A stretch of 64,000 nucleotides of DNA from Leucoraja ocellata. Its lineage: Eukaryota. The translations under genes and the position numbers were made by a program. This document shows, one piece after another, positions 222-54,330 of this stretch. The DNA lies in assembly GCA_036785375.1 (NCBI GenBank), contig JAWMAR010000652.1, forward strand, positions 620,001 to 684,000, in the 5' to 3' direction. Within the stretch, counting starts at the first letter, position 1; each line of letters starts with the position of its first letter. The notes beneath the pieces are model-generated. The model searched no databases. It was not told where the DNA came from and worked only from the letters and a program-made list of their open reading frames with translations.

Positions 222-3200
222 TTATGCAGGTTGACTACTTAGCCCAACACCCGATGAAGAGCTGCAAACAGGTTCTGCTACATTATCGGAGAGGCCATCG
301 TTTGACTGATCAAGGAGTTGATCCAGCTCCTCACCTTCACTATCTGCCGTGTTACCTTGCCAATCCAACAATGGATTGGACAGACTCTCCTCATTTTCTG
401 GTGAAACATTCTTCCATTCAGGCTGTTCTTTGGACCACTTTTCTCCTTCATTTTGGAATGGTGCTCCACTCCACTCACCTGGCCCCGCTCCCCAATTTTG
501 TTCATCGTTTTCCAATACAGCTTTTGTTTTCGAGGTCCGAGTGGGCTCCTCCTCCTCTTCACTTTGGGATACATCATCTGTCCAAGGTCGTTTGATCCAA
601 AATTCTTGCTTCAGTTCAGATGAAACATCTTCCTGATCAGAAGCATGCGGCGATGCTAGTCCATCCTCAGTTGGTGAAGCAACATCTTTGCATTCAGAAA
701 GTTGTTCTGAATCTTCACTTTCTGAGTCTTTATCTTTTGATTCTAAAGATGGCGCAGGATATTGCTCCTCATCCATATTTGACACATCATCCTTCAACTC
801 TAATGATGCAGTTGCCGGAAATGCAGGTTTTTGCAATTCATTGTTTAATTCTTCAGGGACCATTTCAGAAGTTTCTTCCCTGCTCGGCAAACCACTCATT
901 TCACTTGATGACAAATCTTCACCAACAAAAGCATTTGTTGCATTTTCCTCCATATTATCAGGACTCGTATTTATAGGACTTGCTTCCACCATCTCAGCAC
1001 TCATGTTCGATGGGCTTTCCTCCACCATCTCAGCACTCATACTTGAAGGGCTTTTTTCCACCATCTGGGAACTCAAATCTAAAGCACTTCCCTCGACCAT
1101 ATCAGAACTTACATTTGAAGGGCTCTCTGTTGCCATCTCAGAACTCATATTTGAAGGACTTTCCTCCACCATCTCAGTGCTCTTGATTGAAGGACTTTCC
1201 TCCACCACCTGAGCACTCAAATCCAATGGTGTTCCCTCCTCCATTGCAGAGCCGGCATTTGAAGGTCTTTCTTCCACCTGAGTGCTCAAGTCTAAAGCAC
1301 TTCCCTCCACGTTTTCTGAACACAGGTTCACAGTTCTTCCTTTCATCTTTCCCAAGTTTGGATTTGAATTTTCCTCCATTTGGGGGCTCAAATCTAAAAC
1401 GGTTCCCTCCAATTTTTCCGGTCCCCGAATCAAATCTCTTCTCCCTTTTCCCAGTTTCTGATTTACTTTTTCTATGCTTGGTTTTAAAGTAACAGATTCT
1501 TTGCCAACTATTTCTGTGTTATTTAGTATATTCCAAGTCGTCCCAAAGTCCATATTGTGCTTTACTTTTCGTGTCTCCATCATGTTAAATCCAAGCAATA
1601 CTTTAGGCCTGTACTTCTCGCAATCTCGAACACATTTCTTCCTCTTATTGCTAAAGTGGGAAGCAATATCAGATTTCCACAACCATAAGCCAGCTGCCAA
1701 CTTTTCAATTTCCCTTCTGCTTGGGTAAGGTTGTTTGTTAAAATAGTTTGTAAGGAACATTTTTCTGGCCTCATAGGACTCATCCTCATAACCCTTGGGA
1801 TCAATAGCTAAAGCTACTGGCTCCTCTGGTTTATCGTCTCCTGGGGTAAAACCCTGAACAGGTTCTTCACCATCCAATTTCCTTTTTTTCATTAAAGCAA
1901 AGTCCCCATATGCATACTCATATTCTCGCTTCATGGGCATTACACTTGGCGAGTGTGTTACCTTGGCATGAGTAAGGCTCCGATCCTGACCATTTTGTGT
2001 TTTTCCAACACCTCTACAGTGCACCAGATGCAATGTTATGGTTGAAGCTGTCATGTTACTCGTGTAGACTCCCAAACAGTGAATGCACTTATAGGTGAGC
2101 TTTTTCTCCACCGGATGAATTGTTTGTATCACCTGATGCCGTTCCCTCAGATGGTGCGCCAAAGCATCAGATATTGGGCCCTTCAAAATAGAAAAGCACA
2201 ATGGACAAAGGGTTTTACCCACATCATTTTTATAGGGAATCTGGGTTTGAGGTATAGAATTCAAATCTGGCTTTATTCTAGATTTGGCCTGTGGTTTTGG
2301 CTGCTGCAACTGCCCTTCTGGCTTTCTAAAACCCAAGTTCTGATTCTGGGGCCGATAATTTGTATTCTCCACCGAGGTACTCTCAGATGTACTGTATGTA
2401 GTAACATGGAGCTGTATATTACTGCGACTACCTTTCTGTGTAGACAGATCAAAGGTCAACGTTGATTCAGTCTTGGGTCCCACTTCTTCATCAATGTGAA
2501 GGATTCTTACATGTTCAGCCATCTTGTCAACATCATTGAAAGTGGAACGACAGTAGGGACACGAGAGTCCATGGATAAGCATATGGTTAAGCAGTGTTTC
2601 ACTGGGTAAATAGCGATTACAGTAGAGACATTTGCTTGTGAAACTGTTGATCTTCTGAATGTAATTAGCTACAGCCTGGATCTTTTCAGCTTTATGCTCC
2701 TTTTCAAAGTGTATGCTGTACACACTTTCTGGAAAAAGCTCATTACACATTGTGCAAATCTTCCACTTCTGAGCAGCAGACCCTGCTAACGCAGGGCTCT
2801 GGTTAGCAGAATTAGTTGGGGAAGTTAGTGACTTTACTGCTGAAGCAGATAATCCTTGCATCCTCTGAGCTTGAGAAATATTGTACTGTGACTGTTTCAT
2901 TGATCCACTATTACCAGTCATGCTCCCCGACTGAACATTATATTGCATCTGCGATGCTCTCCTCTGTTCACCGGCACCAACTCCATATTGTCGCCCATTG
3001 CCACCAGAGATCAACTGCTTTACTGTTTGTGGTCGCTGCTGCATAGAAACTGGTAAACCACCTGGCAGTGGGAGCCTCATTTGTTGACCCAAAGAATAGT
3101 TATGTGCCATCGATGAAACCGCATACTTTGGTGGCAGACGACCACCACCCGACATAAGATTGACAGCCGAATTCTGTGCATTTTTTGACATGGATGCACG

Positions 3201-3890
3201 ATTCATATTCTGCTGCATTGAACCTTTCCCACCCTGATAATTTCCAGCTGCTAAAGCCTTGTCATGTGGCTTTGGTGCTATCAGCATCAAGGGTTTTGAT
3301 CTTGGAACAACCACATTAGTATGCCCTATCATAGCTGTTACTTGGTATCCTATTCGTTCATGGTCTTCAATAACATGCTGCACCAAGGCTTCGTAAGTTT
3401 TGGGTATGAAGAGACAACGTTTACAATGCACAGTCCCATCCTCTCTTCCATTAGTGGCAGAAAATGTTCCATTCACTGACTTGTCTGCTGTTCTTGCCAC
3501 ATAAGGGGCTGCCACATGCTGAAAATGTTCCCTGTAAATATGCTTCCTGACAACATCATAAAGGGGATCACGGTAAGTACACTTCTTGCAGTAATAGACT
3601 GCTTGTTCCACACTGTCACCATGCTTCAGTTTAAGACTGCTATCCTGCTTTGACTTTTCATGGTGTGCATTCTTGCCTCCACTAGGTACTTTCCAGAGAG
3701 GAACATGAAATATTTTGATATGGGTCTCCAAGGTCTTTCTGTCGGCATTGTAGGGACAATAAGGGCAATTAATGAGGATTTTGTTTTCAAAATCTTCACT
3801 ATGAACATTTCGGAAGTGGCTTTTGTAGGCAGAAAAAAATTTGGATGCAAAAGGACAAGCGCTGCAGCAAAATGGTTTTGTACGATAATC
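222..3890 (-). CDS. ADNP: ADNP (activity-dependent neuroprotector homeobox protein), large terminal coding exon, 1222 aa plus stop
   Basis: Acceptor tgtttttcag|GAT at 3891/3890. Translation [14 protein letters not shown]... shows the ADNP C2H2 zinc-finger array, the homeodomain ([38 protein letters not shown]), a PxVxL motif (PKVLL) and a C-terminus (GVGLSSQPA) resembling human ADNP (GVKLSSQQA). The first 5 aa of the track ORF (MFVFQ) are intronic. Confidence 0.98.
960..1410 (-). repeat. Coding tandem repeat in ADNP, about 12-aa (36-nt) units, acidic and Ser/Pro-rich
   Basis: A tccacc-like register recurs at 985, 1021, 1057, 1093, 1129, 1165 and 1201 (exact 36-nt period), with more degenerate 11-12 aa units to about 1410. 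Peptide units include [12 protein letters not shown] and [12 protein letters not shown]. Confidence 0.9.
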
Positions 3891-4410
3891 CTGAAAAACA
3901 AACAAAAAATGTTTAGGTCATATTGCAATGTAAATCAATCTAATATTACTTCATTTATGATTTAAACAAAACTATTAGAATACTGTAAATTGCATAAATA
4001 TAGATACACAATTTTTTTTCAATTTTAGAAGTTTAATTTTTAAATTCACTACCAAAAACTGCTCTAAATCAGTTATCTGTTATTTAGCCATGATATAGTT
4101 TTAGTGTCTACACAAGAATAGTACAGATACTACTTTACAAGTTGTGTCGATACTACAGTTAGCAGTGAGGCTTGAGACAACTGAATACATATATACAACA
4201 TATTTCAACTGCACTAAACTACAATTCACATATACAGAGAGATGCATCAAATGTCTTGAACTGCCGGTACAGTGGATTTACCAACACAATCATCGAACCA
4301 TTAGTTAAAAAATTGCAGATAAAGATCTTCCTGTTAACTAGTTATAGCTGCATCACAGATGTAACCATAACTTAACCGTCAATATATTCAAAATCTGAAA
4401 TAAAACCAAC

Positions 4411-4503
4411 CTGCAGCTTTGTGGAAGAAGGATCCCAAAGCGAGACATCATCCCAAGTAGTGTTTTTTAGGTAGAAATCATTTGGTTCAAACTGTTTAAA
4501 ATC
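4411..4503 (-). CDS. ADNP: ADNP second coding exon (93 nt, [31 protein letters not shown])
   Basis: ttccag| acceptor and |gttggt donor; phase 0 at both ends; near-identical to human ADNP aa 37-67 as recalled. Confidence 0.97.
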
Positions 4504-5859: not shown

Positions 5860-5967
5860 CTCAATATGGTCTTTACAATAATCTAACCCAATATCAGTAA
5901 GGATTTTTTTCACCGTTTTACGAGCTTTTCTTAGATTTGCAAGGTTGTTAACAGGAAGCTGGTACAT
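5860..5967 (-). CDS. ADNP: ADNP first coding exon (108 nt [39 protein letters not shown]); the exon starts at 5972
   Basis: gaacag|AAACT-ATG with a GAG|gtaagt donor; matches the ADNP N-terminus [36 protein letters not shown]. The spliced CDS is 36+31+1222 = 1289 aa. Confidence 0.97.
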
Positions 5968-15142: not shown

Positions 15143-16061
15143 ATTTCTTTAAATATGTAAAAAGGAAAAGATTAGTGAAAACAAATGTAGGTCCCTTACA
15201 GGTGAATTTATAATGGGAAACAAGGAAATGGCAGAACAGTTAAACGAGTACTTTGGTTCTGTCTTCACTAAGGAAGACAAACAATCCCAGAAATACTAGT
15301 GGACTGGGTATCTAGTGGGAGGGAGGAACTGAAGGGAATCCACATTAGTCAGGAAATGGTGTTGGGTAAACTGTTGGGATTGAAGGCAGATAAATCCCCA
15401 GGGCCTGATGGTTTGCATTCCAGAATACCTAAGGAGGTGGCCCTAGAAATCGTGGATGCATTGGTGATCATTTTCCAATGTTCTCTCGACGCTGGATCAG
15501 TTCCTGTGGACTGGAGGGTAGCCAATGTAACTCCATTTGTTAAGAAAGGAGAGAAAACATGGAATTATAGACCAGTTAGCCTTACATCGGTAGTGGGGAA
15601 GATGCTTGAATCGATTATTAAAGATGTTATAGCAGAGCATTTGGAAAGCAGTGACAGGATCAGAAGGGTCTCCGTCCGAAACATCACCTATTCCTTTGCT
15701 CCATGGATGCTGCCTCACCCACTGAGTTTCTCCAGCATGTTTGTCTACCACAGGATCAGTCAAAATCAGCATGGATTTATGAAGGACAAATCATGCTTGA
15801 CTAATCTACTTGAATTTTTTGAGGATGTAACAAGTAGAATGGATAAGGGAAAGCCAGTGGATGGCATGCACCTGGACTTTCAGAAAGCCTTTAGCAAGGT
15901 TCCACACAAGGGATTAGTGTGCAAAATTAGAGCACATGGTATTCAGAGTACTATATTGACATGGATAGAAAACCGGTTGGCAGACAGGAAGCAAAGAGTA
16001 GGAATTAACGGGTCCTTTTCAGAATGGCAGGCAATAACTAGTGGGGTGTCACAAGGCTCAG
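15143..16061 (+). mobile_element. CR1-class LINE ORF2 (RT) fragment
   Basis: KSPGPDG, WRVANVTP, NYRPVSLTSVVGK, QHGFMK, LDFQKAF, SGVSQGS motifs. Confidence 0.92.
15664..15749 (+). mobile_element. Penelope-derived short element inserted in frame into CR1 ORF2
   Basis: TSD ACAGGATCAG at 15654-15663 and 15750-15759; net insertion 96 nt. Confidence 0.85.
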
Positions 16062-19000
16062 AACCCGTCTTCTTTTACCTTAACGCTATCATTTCTCTTC
16101 TGGTCCAAACACTTCCCACCCATATATGTCATCTCACTTGTCGTCCATCATTTTGATAAATTCCAATTTTCCTAGCCCGTTTCATCATTATTATGGGTCC
16201 CCATTCCTCCACAAAAGTCTGGTTCCCCTTGCCCTTCACCTCTCTCCTAGTGGTTTCCTTATCACCTTCCTTACTTATCACATCATAGCATTGTCAGCCT
16301 ATGCATACTTGCCTATAACCCTCCAGCAGTTGTTTGAGGAATCATCATCACCTGCCTTTATTGGCTGACTCCATCTATCATCCACCTGCCTCTTCCTCAA
16401 AATACCACATCCTCCTCCCCAGCTGCCCATCATCCCTCACCCTTCGTCGGTTCACCCACTGGTGAACATCTCATCACTGCTTCTCTCTTTATACCACCCT
16501 TAGTCCTAAAAAAGGGCTCATCCCAAAACATTGTCAATTCCTCCTCTTCTTCTCCCCCATTCCTTACAAATCCCTATTGTCATCAAACTACTGAACAGTC
16601 CGACCGTAAACAGATGCTAATCTTTCAACCTACCTCAATGCAAACCTTGCATTTTCTTTGCAACTATAATATTATAATGCTGTCACAAATTCTGCACTTG
16701 TATTTTTCTCTTTGTATTACCCATTGTGTTAGTGTGTAGCTTAATTGTACTCATGTATAGTATGAATTGACTGGATATTAAGCAAACAGAGCTGTTCATT
16801 GTATCATGGTATAAATGACAATAAACCAATACAAACACATCAAAACCATGATAATGCATTTATAAATGATAAAATATTCTCAATTTTAAATAATCTACTT
16901 TAAATTAGACAATAACACGTAAATTTGGTCCTTTATCATTATCAATAATACAAAGTTTCTTTGCAGTCAATGGGCAATTATAGGAAGATTATTCACTTCC
17001 CGACTTGCTTTAATTACAACCACTGTAAAATTTATACAAATTAAATATATGGATCTCTAAATGGATAATTAAATATTAATCATAAAAATAATAACTATAT
17101 ACAAGCAAAAGTTAATATTCCTTACTAATAGGGAAACTTCATATCAAGTTCATTTCCTCTATGTTTAATTTTCTTCCGAATATCTGCTTTATGACCTGCT
17201 GAATATAGCCACTAAATGAAAATATAGTGAGCAGAGTGACAAGAGACATTTGTCCATTTTAATCACTTTATTGTTCAAATCTACTTTACTGAAAGAACAA
17301 TGTGCATCAGGCACATTAAATGTTTACCAAATCATATTTTGGTTAATTAAACGAGATAGATCACAATTTCTTATGTTTCAGTAAATCTAAAGGGTGGGTT
17401 TTTGCAAGTGGTGTTCAATATCCTACCCATAGGTCTCATCCATCTTCCCAGCTCTCTGGAGTTTTTAACAAGCCACAAGCACCAGATAGATACAAGGTCC
17501 TTATCATTAGCTCAGCTACTTTCTACATGTATGCTGAACTTTAAATGCTCCTAATAAACTAAATTGCAACTGTTCATTTAAAAGATCTGACCACCACTTA
17601 CAATAGACAAAGCATATCTTATAATTAAACCAGCCAACCACTATCTCATAGCCACATTTATAAAGGTAGCTGAAAGCACTTAAACCATTCCAGATCATTG
17701 AGCTCTGCATCTTTTAGTTGCTCCAGTGACCAAGAAACATATGTAGTTCGTTCAACTCCATATAATTCCTCCCGAATTATCAATGATTGTGATAAAACTT
17801 ATTTTCTCTCAATTTGTATGTTCTATAAACAAAAATGAAATATTGTTGGGGTAGCCAGCATGCACTTTGTCAGGAGTGGATTCTCCTCAGAATGGCATGG
17901 ATGGAGACTTCTTGTCTATTTCCTATTTATATCACAATGTATTGGTATTGAAAAATTGTATGAGAATTAAATTTAAAATATTATGACATCGTTGCATTGC
18001 AAAATTCAGGAGAAAACTGACAATCTATTTTTTATAGAAGCAATTGGGGAGCATTTGGCTCCCAAAAGTGTAGGTATTGAAAGAGGGCACATGCCATCAC
18101 ATTTCCCTGGCATTTTCTCATTGCTTCTTAATTATGTATTTTTCCTTATTTTTTTTAAATAGGAACCCGAGGGGCAACTTTTTCCACACAGACAGTGGTG
18201 GGTATATGGAAAGAGCTGCCAGAAATAGTTGAGGCAGATACTACAACATTTAAATGTCAGAACATGGGCAACATTGAGTAACATGTGCAATTTTAATCTG
18301 GGCTATAGCAGGTTTTGTTTCAATTGCGCATTCAAGGATTTCTAAGCCTTTGTTTGGCTATTGAGTCTTCTGGGTGATGAGTTTATACATATGATTCTCC
18401 CAGATTGGCAGTATTAAAAAAAAAAAAAAGGAATCCATTAATGGTGTGTTTGCAATCTAACCAGCAAGTGTAAATAAATGTGTTAATACATTCTTGTACA
18501 TGAGCATTCGGGTCATCAATCTAGTCCGCAAAAGTTGTGCACCAGACTATTATGTTTAACTATTACCCAGGAAGTTTGCACTTTTTGATCCCTGCAATTC
18601 ATTTTGTTGCTTATGATTTGCCCAGTAGCTTTGAAGTTCCAGTTCCACTCGACTTCTTTCACTCAAGCTTCCTTTTCCAGGTATCTGGTCAAAAGTCAAC
18701 TTCTAATTTGTCTGCAAAGCAGAAGCTCACTAATCCAATTTGCAAAAAAGAATTTGGATATAGGCCAAGCTCAATAGCAAAATTCAACAATTAATTTAAA
18801 ATAAGCATACACATGAATTATAAACCAGCTCTTTCTCACGTACACCTCTGCCAAAGGTTAACGAAAATCAAATACTGCAGTCATTCTTCACAAGTAGAAA
18901 TGAAAATTCTAGGTATGCATACATAGTACATGGATTTTCATATTTATGTATCCATTATTGGTTAAAAATGTAATTAAAAACTATATGGCCTTATAATTAA

Positions 19001-33150: not shown

Positions 33151-34765
33151 CAGTGCATTCAGAAAGTATTCAGACCTCTTCACTTTTTCCACATTTTGTT
33201 ACGTTACAGCCTTATTCTAAAATGGATTAAATTCAATTGTTTTATCATCAATCTCCACACGATACCTCATAATATAAAAGCAAAAACAGGTGTTTAGAAA
33301 TATTTGCAAAGTAATTAAAAATAAATTACTGAAATATCACATTTAGATAAGTATTCAGACCCTTTGCTGTGGCACTCAGAATTGAGCTTCGGTGCATCCT
33401 GTTTCCATTGTTTATCCTTGAGATGTTTCTACAAGTGGATTGGAGTCCACAAACGGTAAATTAAATTGATTGTACATGATTTGGAAAGGCACACACCTGT
33501 CTATATAAGGTCCCGCAGTTGAAAGTGCATGTCAGAACAAAAACCAAGCGATGAAGACGAAGGAATTGTCCGGAGACGTCTGAGACAGGATTGTGTCGAG
33601 ACACAGATCTGGGGAAGGGTATAAAACAATTTTGGCAGCATTGCAGGTCCCGAAGAGCACAGTGGCCTCCGTCATTCTTAAATGGAAGAACTTTGAAACC
33701 ACCACGTCTCTTCGTAGAGCTGGCCACCCGGCCAAACTGATCAATCGAGAGAAATGGGCCGTGGTCAGGGAAGTGACCAAGAACCCGATGGTCACTCTGA
33801 CAGAGCTCCAGAGTTCCTCTGTGGAGATGGGAGAAAATTCCAGAAGGCCAACTATATCTGCAACACTCCACCAATCAGGCTTTTATGGTAGAGTGGCCAG
33901 ATGGAAGCCACTCCTCAGTAAAAGGCACCTGACAGCTCGCTTGGAGTTTGCCAAAGGGCTCCTAAACAAGATTCTCTGGTCAGATGAAACCAAGATTGAA
34001 CACTTTGGCCTGAATGCGAAGTGTCACGTCTGCAGGAAACCAGGCACCGCTCATCACCTGGCCAAAACCGTACCTACGGTGAAGCATGGTGGTGGCAGCA
34101 TCATGCTGTGGGAATGTTTTGTAGCGACAGGAACTGGGAGACTAGTCACGGTCGAGGGAAAGATGAACGGAGCAAAGTACAGAGAGATCCTTGATAAAAA
34201 CCTGCTCCTGAGCATTCAAGACCTGACTGGGGCAGAGGTTCTCCTTCCAACAGAACAATGCCCCTAAGCACACAGCCAATACAACACAGGAGTGGCTTCA
34301 TGACAAGTCTGTGAATGTCCTTGAGTGGCCCAGCCAGAGCCCGGACTTGAACCCGATAGAACATCTCTGGTGGGACCTGAAAATAGCTGTGCATCGACGC
34401 TCCCCATCCAACCTGACAGAGCTTGAGAAGATCTGCAGAGAAGAATGGGAGAAATTACCCAAATAATGGTGTGCCAAGCTTGTAGCGTTATACCCAAGAA
34501 GACTTGAGGCTGTAATTAGTGCCAAAGGTGCCTCAAGAAAGTACTGAGTGAAGGGTCTGAATACTTATGTAAATGTAATATTTCAGTTATTTATTTTTAA
34601 CTACTTTACAAAAATTTCTAAACACCTGTTTTTGCTTTTTCATTATGGGGTATTGTGTGTACATGGATGATAAACCTAAATTAATTTAATCCATTTTAGA
34701 ATAAGGCTGTGACGTAACAAAATGTGGAAAAAGTGAAGGGGTCCAAATACTTTCTGAATGCACTG
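33151..34765 (+). mobile_element. Full-length Tc1/mariner DNA transposon (IR/DR type, about 210-bp TIRs) in the last DPM1 intron
   Basis: TA|CAGTGCATTCAGAAAGTATT ... AATACTTTCTGAATGCACTG|TA. The long inverted repeats each carry the direct repeat AAGTATTCAGACC twice. An internal transposase is present. Confidence 0.96.
33551..34547 (+). pseudogene. Tc1 DD34E-type transposase, inactivated
   Basis: ATG at 33551; in-frame TGA at 33581; ILWSDE and KHGGGSIMLW motifs; frameshift near 34225; QQDND changed to QQNNA (catalytic Asp lost); [12 protein letters not shown] motif; a further stop; ends AKGASRKY*. Confidence 0.93.
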
Positions 34766-52654: not shown

Positions 52655-54330
52655 TCCGAATAAGGGTCCCGTTATGTTACATGTTAATTGGCCACTGTAA
52701 ATTGCCCTTAGTGTTTTGGGGGTGGATGAGAAAGTGGGATAACATAGGACTAGGAGGTACACAAAAATGCTGGAGAAACTCAGCGGGTGCATCAGCATCT
52801 ATGGAGCGAAGGAAATAGGCAAAGTTTTGGGCCGAAACCTTTCTTCAGATTAATGGGGACGGGGGGGGAGAAGGAAGGAAAAAGGGAGGAGGAGGAACCC
52901 GAGGGCGGGGGGATGGGAGGAGACAGCTCGAGGGTGAAGGAAGGGGAGGAGACAGCAAGGGCTAGCAAAACTGGGAGAATTCAACGTTCATGCCATCTGC
53001 ACGCAAGCAACCCAGGCGGAATATGAGGTGCTGTTCCTCCAATTTCCGGTGTTGCTCACTCTGGCAATGGACCCAGGACAGAGAGGTCGGATTGGGAATG
53101 GGAGGGGGAGTTGAAGTGCTGAGCCACCGGGAGTTCAGGTAGGTTATTGCGGACTGAGCAGAGGTGTTCGGCGAAACGATCGCCCAACCTCCGCTTAGTC
53201 TCCCCGATGTAAATCAGCTGACATCTAGAGCAGTGGATGCAGTAGATGAGGTTGGAGGAGATACAGGTGAACCTTTGTCGCACCTGGAACGACTGCTTGG
53301 GTCCTTGAATGGAGTCGAGGGGGGAGGTGAAGGGACAGGTGTTGCATTTCTTGCAGTTGCAACGGAAAGTGCCCGGGGCGGGGGTGGTACGGGAGGGAAG
53401 GGAAGAATTGACAAGGGAGTTGCGGAGGGAGCGGTCTTTGCGGAAGGCAGACATAGGGGGAGATGGGAAGATGTGGCGAGTGGTGGGGTCACGTTGGAGG
53501 TGGCGGAAATGGCGGAGGATTATTTGTTGTATTTGCCGGCTGGTGGGGTGAAAGGTGAGGACTAGGGGGACTCTGCCCTTGTTGCGAGTGCGGGGATGGG
53601 GAGAGAGAGCAGTGTTGCGGGGTATGGATGAGACCCTGGTGCAAGCCTCATCTATGGTGGCGGAGGGGAATCCCCGTTCCCTGAAGAACGAGGACATTTC
53701 CGATGCCCTGGTGTGGAACGTCTCATCCTGGGAGCAGATGCGGCGTAGACGGAGGAAATGGGAGTAGGGGATGGAGTCTTTACAGGGGGCAGGGTGGGAA
53801 AACGTGTAATCCAGATAGCCATGTGAGTCAGTTGGTTTGTAGTGTATGTCGGTCAGAAGTCTGTCCCCTGCGATGGAGATGGTGAGGTCAAGGAATGGTA
53901 GGGAAGTGTCGGAAATGGTCCAGGTGTATTGGAGTGTCGGATGGAAGTTGGTGGTGAAGTGGATGAAGTCAGTCAGTTGTGTGTGGGTGCAGGAGGTGGC
54001 TCCAAAGCAGTCGTCAATGTAACGGAGGTAGAGGTCGGGGATGGGGCCCTGGTACGTATTGAACAAGGATTGTTCAACGTACCCGACAAAGAGGCAGGCG
54101 TAGCTGGGGCCCATGCGTGTGCCCATAGCTACGCCTTGTATTTGGAGGAAATGGGAGGAGTCAAACGTAAAGTTGTTGAGGGTGAGGACCAACTCCGCTA
54201 GGCGGAGGAGGGTGTCAGTGGCTGGGTATAGGTTGCTCCTCACATAGGACTAGTGTGAATAGATAATTGACAGTCAGCTTGGACTCGTTGGGCAGAAGGG
54301 GCATGTTACCATGCTGTTTCTTTCAGTCAA
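52655..54330 (+). mobile_element. V-SINE 3' half split by the Penelope insertion (pieces about 52655-52753 and 54254-54330)
   Basis: gttaattggccactgtaaattgccc...gggataacataggactag | tgtgaa...ttggactcgttgggcagaagg is continuous once the insertion is removed. Confidence 0.7.
52754..54241 (-). mobile_element. 5'-truncated Penelope-like retroelement (RT C-terminal half plus GIY-YIG endonuclease plus 3' terminal repeat)
   Basis: The ORF has QIQGVAMGTRMGPSYA, YLRYIDD, FLDL and NLIYCIHCSRCQLIYIGET. After a frameshift near 53070 it continues HCQSEQHRKLEEQHLIFRLG...GMNVEF to a stop at 52962. 12-bp TSD ACATAGGACTAG at 52742-52753 and 54242-54253. It interrupts a V-SINE. Confidence 0.94.

Follow-up and report, generated by a model that had tools for sequence, protein, structure and literature searches.

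A tandem-repeat array with four candidate CtBP-docking motifs is conserved in the ADNP protein of sharks and rays

The ZEB1-type repressors, which combine zinc fingers with a homeodomain, carry clustered PLDLS motifs for the co-repressor CtBP that are both ancient and canonical. The closest model for the locus described here is RAI2, for which the published study reports that each ALDLS binds CtBP at ~5 uM, with LDL forming a parallel beta-strand with CtBP strand beta2 and supplying the only specific contacts (PMC11187106). The CtBP tetramer offers four sites, and the two motifs of RAI2 bridge stacked tetramers and relieve repression (PMC11187106). EBNA3A has an ALDLS and a VLDLS that bind CtBP, synergise and serve repression (PMC2883600), ZBTB18 binds CtBP through VLDLS (PMC9684030), and class IIa HDACs have P-X-D-L-R as their CtBP motif (PMC7912504). 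Among protostomes, Su(H)/Hairless has gained and lost CtBP motifs by lineage, with binding confirmed by pull-down (PMC6777938). ADNP, which joins CHD4 and HP1 in the ChAHP complex, binds HP1 through a PxVxL motif (PMC10031977).

The ADNP of elasmobranchs carries an array that shares with RAI2 its repeated, non-canonical xLDLS motifs, a linker of ~20 residues and a constrained LDL, in what is presumably an unfolded region here as well; it differs in having four motifs instead of two, in being built from a tandem repeat and in sitting on a DNA- and HP1-binding carrier. Its motifs are spelled identically to those of EBNA3A (two motifs) and ZBTB18 (one), although these proteins are unrelated to it. 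The Su(H)/Hairless case is similar in that a conserved factor acquired CtBP motifs where its sequence is variable, but those motifs are single and did not come from a tandem repeat. Compared with the ancient motifs of the ZEB1 type, the array is a lineage-specific gain, and the mammalian ADNPs that we scanned, unlike those of elasmobranchs, lack xLDLS motifs, which suggests that the elasmobranch protein may have a partner not shared by its mammalian counterparts.

The window analysed here, the whole stretch under study, comprises 64,000 nucleotides of the skate Leucoraja ocellata (GenBank assembly GCA_036785375.1, contig JAWMAR010000652.1, positions 620,001 to 684,000), and all coordinates below are positions within it. 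Its gene is ADNP on the basis of a Pfam ADNP_N match (E=0) together with a homeodomain. As expected of the ChAHP subunit, this orthologue has both the ADNP_N zinc-finger region and the homeodomain, and a PxVxL follows the latter. Between the product of the last exon and a skate protein named ADNP b at NCBI there are 2 differences. The gene has the following parts:

5860 to 5967, minus strand: ADNP coding exon 1 (36 codons), from translation and a GT donor, matching the N-terminus of skate ADNP records
4411 to 4503, minus strand: ADNP coding exon 2 (31 codons), from AG/GT ends and translation
222 to 3890, minus strand: last ADNP coding exon (1222 codons plus stop) with zinc-finger region, homeodomain and acidic tail (Pfam ADNP_N, E=0), within an open reading frame spanning 222 to 3917
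1635 to 1760, minus strand: Pfam-matched part of the homeodomain (PF00046, E 1.1e-6)
1593 to 1607, minus strand: HP1-type PxVxL motif, PKVLL in 24/25 chondrichthyan rows and PKALL in 1/25, that of Rhinoraja

Summing the three exon translations (36+31+1222) gives the 1289 amino acids proposed for the protein in the original prediction, which had been made from the letters of the window. Elsewhere in the window there are three transposon-type open reading frames (15272-16156, 33584-34267 and 53056-54249), of which one is a reverse transcriptase (Pfam RVT_1), one a Tc1/Sleeping Beauty-type transposase, and the third, without a Pfam match, is retroelement-like by eye.

Downstream of the HP1 motif lies the repeat array, whose parts are as follows:

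957 to 1418, minus strand: coding repeat array of 154 aa in ~12-codon units, S/E-rich, net charge -23, with 8 SP dipeptides
1386 to 1400, minus strand: motif 1, VLDLS, at aa 898; among 23 elasmobranch rows, V opens it in 18 and I in 5, with LDLS unchanged throughout
1317 to 1352, minus strand: degenerate unit that in sharks appears to resemble a motif-type unit minus its LDLS core (by-eye alignment)
1284 to 1298, minus strand: motif 2, ALDLS, at aa 932; invariant in 23/23 elasmobranch rows as well as the two from chimaeras, probably the first site to arise
1245 to 1280, minus strand: spacer unit, from unit comparison
1215 to 1229, minus strand: motif 3, canonical PLDLS, at aa 955; PLDLS in 21 and PLDLR in 2 of 23 rows
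1101 to 1208, minus strand: three spacer units of EESPSNMS type, from unit comparison
1071 to 1085, minus strand: motif 4, ALDLS, at aa 1003; among the 23 rows, A opens it in 12 and V in 11, with LDLS unchanged throughout
957 to 1064, minus strand: three trailing spacer units, from alignment, with one extra unit here in sharks

Before a repeat in a draft genome is given any biological meaning, the possibility must be considered that it is an artefact of assembly or repeat collapse. The ADNP locus does occur twice in the assembly, the second copy (C131:2020977-2024457) being identical over 3481 bases, and this could be taken as a sign of such trouble. However, other genes of the same assembly are likewise present in two copies, and because so many are doubled, the two ADNP copies are likely retained haplotypes. 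Independent records of 22 species contain the same array, as do 10 transcript-sized contig proteins, all ten of which keep the four LDLS (one has F for V in motif 1). Raw reads of a single-cell RNA run (X24; 276 reads on positions 100-2600) cover every bin of 940-1443 with no indel or joint over the array, at a depth of ~2-5 in its middle. A second run (X21) gave 4 reads on 100-2600 and none over the array, and two more (X1 and X15) gave 0 reads on that interval, zeros of a kind that can be false. Inclusion of the array in RNA, for which the original prediction had called, is thus seen in one run at low mid-array depth, with three of four runs lacking array reads, and mis-assembly, which it had named as a refuting outcome, is not borne out; we regard an artefact as practically negligible.

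The array has a period of 36 nucleotides, which Tandem Repeats Finder reports for 944-1219 at 7.7 copies with 70% matches and 0% indels. A claim of an exact period holds for the spacing, which is free of indels, but not for the copies, which have diverged (21-30 of 36 positions identical at lag 36 over 952-1168). Aligned in register, motif units prove homologous to spacer units (up to 28/36 nucleotides identical, mean 20.9), with PLDLS or ALDLS of the motif units occupying the place of PSNMS in the spacer units, and on this alignment both kinds are one ancestral 12-codon unit, a shared origin that the original prediction had missed. The four xLDLS motifs lie exactly where they had been predicted, yet the two unit types, thought to alternate, do not: with M for motif units and s for spacers, the order is M1, degenerate units, M2, s, M3, s, s, s, M4, s, s, s. 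The motifs start 34, 23 and 48 aa apart, leaving linkers of 29, 18 and 43 residues, and these start-to-start distances are nearly fixed across the 23 rows (32-35, 21-23 and 48). The tail after PxVxL is 461 aa long, against a median of 284 aa in the 39/116 non-chondrichthyan ADNPs with a match to that anchor; set beside the 154 aa of the array, this means that the array accounts for most of the length excess of the protein, as the original prediction had it.

In 200,000 shuffles of the 471-aa tail, three or more xLDL[ST] never occurred and two occurred in 82, but duplication alone would yield repeated copies, so the weight rests on the conservation tests given below rather than on this count. 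The array belongs to no family found by a Pfam search; its S/E-rich composition, its net charge and a pLDDT of 52-53 for the partner in a folding run would be compatible with a disordered, accessible region. An ESM Atlas search with the array (best value 0.78) returned clusters without names and was uninformative. As a separate observation, a Q stands two residues past the motifs in 23, 20, 23 and 23 of 23 rows (motifs 1-4), and S/T-Q sites follow motifs 1, 2 and 4 in most species (window 1380-1385, 1278-1283 and 1065-1070); we take these to be possible ATM/ATR-type phosphosites.

The distribution of the array was surveyed with one isoform per named elasmobranch species, two clusters being represented by 15/23 and 15/17 of their members. 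All four motifs are kept in 22/22 named elasmobranch species among the matches listed (9 rays and skates, 13 sharks), or 23/23 rows with the window, whereas in the two chimaera rows the array is shorter and holds motif 2 alone. The original prediction had asked whether copy number varies between species, and it does so for spacers, of which sharks carry one more in the trailing block than rays, and in the single motif of chimaeras; the number of motifs is constant across sharks and rays. Outside the chondrichthyans, tails were anchored on the homeodomain in 116/116 ADNPs, since a PxVxL anchor missed many bony fish. No motif is present in the tail of 110/116, PLDLS or PLNLS occurs in 5 and PIDLV in 1. 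Within these 116 ADNPs, none was found in mammals, birds, reptiles, amphibians, lungfish, coelacanth, gar, bowfin or sturgeon. For mammals, where the original prediction had human ADNP lacking such a motif, the set is made up of ape, macaque and other non-human records. A distant-family search returned the loose motif pattern in 5/51 proteins, namely a cod PLNLS and four scattered single matches, and no array.

The ADNP2-like paralogues of the skate genome have no motif in 2/2 long open reading frames; two distinct genes of this kind (open frames of 927 and 686 aa) each occur twice on contig C17, a possible local duplication. A hagfish ADNP-like tail contains LFDLSAQ, similar to the LDLSAQ context of motif 3, which may be chance, and in axolotl ADNP this part of the tail carries a short SP-rich repeat expansion of its own, without LDLS.

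With the shark-ray split placed at 306 Ma (PMC3692497), the dates in that paper and the distribution above make the four-motif layout older than 306 Ma and motif 2 older than 421 Ma. On these dates the array is ~300 My old, its four-motif layout probably fixed before sharks and rays parted; the 12-codon unit would have expanded in a chondrichthyan ancestor that had at least motif 2.

An old repeat need not be a functional one, and the array might be a frozen coding minisatellite, an acidic, phosphorylatable and disordered spacer in which the LDLS strings are passengers. Such a reading could draw on the common origin of motif and spacer units, on the conservation of the SP positions in the spacers (3 changes in 14 positions) and on that of the tail as a whole, where 59% of the 244 positions past the array are invariant in elasmobranchs. 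The slow evolution of chondrichthyan genomes (PMC3692497) is a further caveat on any signal of conservation. The LDLS cores are nevertheless far more constrained. Counted on the tree, their 16 positions have changed once, as compared with 164 changes in the other 137 array positions (permutation p=0.0009; p=0.003 against the whole tail) and 25 changes in the 28 corresponding positions of spacer units (p=0.008), while L elsewhere in the tail has a mean of 1.23 changes. Invariant positions number 15/16 in the cores and 62/137 in the rest of the array (Fisher p=1.5e-4), with the caveat that species share history. The original prediction had named LDLS positions no more conserved than their neighbours as a refuting outcome, and this is not what is seen; the cores stand above their flanks, as is expected of a CtBP ligand. 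Within the window, pairwise comparison of the four paralogous cores yields 10 synonymous and 0 nonsynonymous codon differences, and that of the spacer cores 14 synonymous and 41 nonsynonymous (pairs not being independent in either case). Sharks and rays, as noted, differ in spacer number at the same motif number. Against a role of the motifs, one motif-like unit has apparently decayed, judging from alignment by eye. The substitution patterns demonstrate purifying selection on the LDL(S) cores, and we consider a mere passenger repeat very improbable.

What the cores are selected for is best approached through their spelling. PLDLS, ALDLS, VLDLS and PxDLR are all published binders of CtBP in other proteins, as the original prediction had held for the first three, and the sole core change in the array, which turns PLDLS into PLDLR in the pair of whale shark and zebra shark, falls on another published spelling. 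For ILDLS, no published CtBP binding was found in the literature passages on CtBP motifs. Across the 23 rows the first residue is variable (V/I, A, P and A/V) and LDL is invariant, as the LDL beta-strand binding mode of RAI2 predicts. The partner is also at hand: the same genome has three CtBP-type genes, whose N-terminal binding-domain exon (48 aa) is 96-100% identical to that of shark CtBP1, so an intact binding domain is encoded at three loci. Against CtBP it counts that only one of the four motifs is the canonical PLDLS and that the motif flanks, which are acidic, terminate in Q, since basic residues are common downstream of the motif in strong CtBP ligands.

Absence of CtBP binding was the third refuting outcome named in the original prediction. 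On this point, co-folding of two shark CtBP1 with a 48-aa segment holding motifs 2 and 3 (ESMFold2) scored 0.60 against 0.02 for the best control, a weak result from a method uncalibrated for peptides, with runs agreeing in at least 75% of contacts and a partner pLDDT of at least 51. The mark used is reached by 51/78 solved complexes and 2/108 mismatches and, on eukaryotes, by 71/105 solved pairs and 2/126 unrelated pairs; at or below 0.60, however, lie just 5/78 solved complexes, yet all 4 of the passing mismatches (of 180). Because CtBP-peptide structures have been solved, RAI2 complexes included, the pass may also reflect memory. On the spelling and conservation of the motifs, we conclude that they probably bind the PxDLS groove of CtBP.

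A different groove could in principle impose the same constraint, most plausibly that of SUMO, in which case the array would be a poly-SIM array reading SUMO chains in the manner of RNF4. SIMs prefer V or I at the positions concerned, and V and I do occur as the first residue of motifs 1 and 4. VLDLS and ILDLS are akin to VIDLT, the core of PIAS1 SIMb, and RNF4 has four clustered SIMs, with SUMO binding favoured by acidic flanks (PMC3901395). A VIDLT-like core with V/I in its first two positions is nevertheless not what the array contains, as the first residue is invariantly A in motif 2 and P in motif 3, L fills the second position throughout, and S or R but never T closes the motif; the pattern of residues is instead the published set of CtBP spellings. 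A SUMO-reading array is, in our view, improbable, and CtBP remains the preferred partner.

Whether a multivalent ligand would recruit CtBP or disable it is a separate question. If the motifs acted as in RAI2, they would cross-link tetramers into filaments or foci and remove CtBP from repression, making ADNP a sink or antagonist. RAI2, a precedent that the original prediction did not consider, has two ALDLS 21 residues apart, polymerises CtBP and relieves repression (PMC11187106). ALDLS makes up two of the four ADNP motifs, the linkers of 29, 18 and 43 residues are nearly fixed in length over the 23 rows, and the 18 residues between motifs 2 and 3 fall within the range of an RAI2-like polymeriser (at least two xLDLS with a linker of ~10-21 residues). 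ADNP, on the other hand, is a repressor subunit bound to DNA and HP1, whereas RAI2 has no folded domain; the tandem ALDLS/VLDLS of EBNA3A serves repression (PMC2883600); and the lone motif of teleosts, described below, could not cross-link by itself. Such a sink appears unlikely, and we lean towards a multivalent docking module beside the HP1 motif that recruits CtBP rather than sequestering it. DNA-bound ADNP would then tether and cluster the co-repressor next to its own HP1 site, the zinc fingers and HP1 holding the protein on chromatin while the four sites capture CtBP. Four weak sites would confer avidity and bridge CtBP tetramers where ADNP sits on chromatin, and ChAHP would thereby gain repression through CtBP.

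Neither the motif class nor multivalent binding of CtBP is new; the new part is the link between ADNP and CtBP, which we did not find among the titles and abstracts of the papers listed, though supplementary interactome tables may contain it. CtBP is mentioned 0 times in an ADNP review (PMC10031977) and a ChAHP preprint (bioRxiv 2025.07.02.662776), and passages of PMC10117376 contain no ADNP-CtBP link.

A second, separate motif, which the original prediction did not mention, is found in spiny-rayed fishes. From a search with a spiny-rayed fish ADNPb, 120 of 179 proteins were taken in, and P-x-[D/N]-L-S is present in at least 61 of the 179 (61/120 among the matches listed). PL[D/N]LS occurs in 44/58 named acanthomorph ADNPs and in 0/26 other named teleosts among the matches listed, a grouping that we made from general taxonomic knowledge. 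It is missing from 14/58 acanthomorph records, comprising all seven pipefish and seahorses and seven others. The motif lies in the same tail but outside any repeat, at a place where salmonids read PQYLS-like, and is more simply explained by an origin of its own; on this comparison, spiny-rayed fishes likely gained one CtBP-type motif separately, by convergence. It is conserved no better than the adjoining EPIAIDS stretch.

Some further features of these records may be noted. In acanthomorph ADNPb, PLDLS or PLNLS directly precedes EPIAIDSDS and an acidic run, which looks SIM-like. Most acanthomorph ADNPb, and most other teleost ADNPb, read xxVLL where the proline of PxVxL is gone. In one further record, labelled Lepidogalaxias, the tail is almost that of the cod group; its label may be wrong, and neither teleost tally includes it.

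More speculatively, ADNP might have been wired to CtBP twice in jawed fishes, through the tetravalent repeat of sharks and rays and through a point-change PLDLS in acanthomorphs, with the elasmobranch array nucleating RAI2-like CtBP polymers at ADNP targets; as a whole this combined scenario is rather doubtful, though we entertain it.

The array offers a clean example from nature of how tandem repetition within a gene can yield multivalent short motifs, and it provides a four-site ligand with which to ask if CtBP, when bound multivalently, is recruited or inactivated. ADNP ranks among the major autism-syndrome genes, and in descriptions of ChAHP it is the targeting subunit. If the motifs work, the co-repressor set of ADNP differs across vertebrates, with consequences for comparisons among fish models, as zebrafish-group ADNPs are without the motif and the ADNPb of medaka, killifish and cichlids has it.
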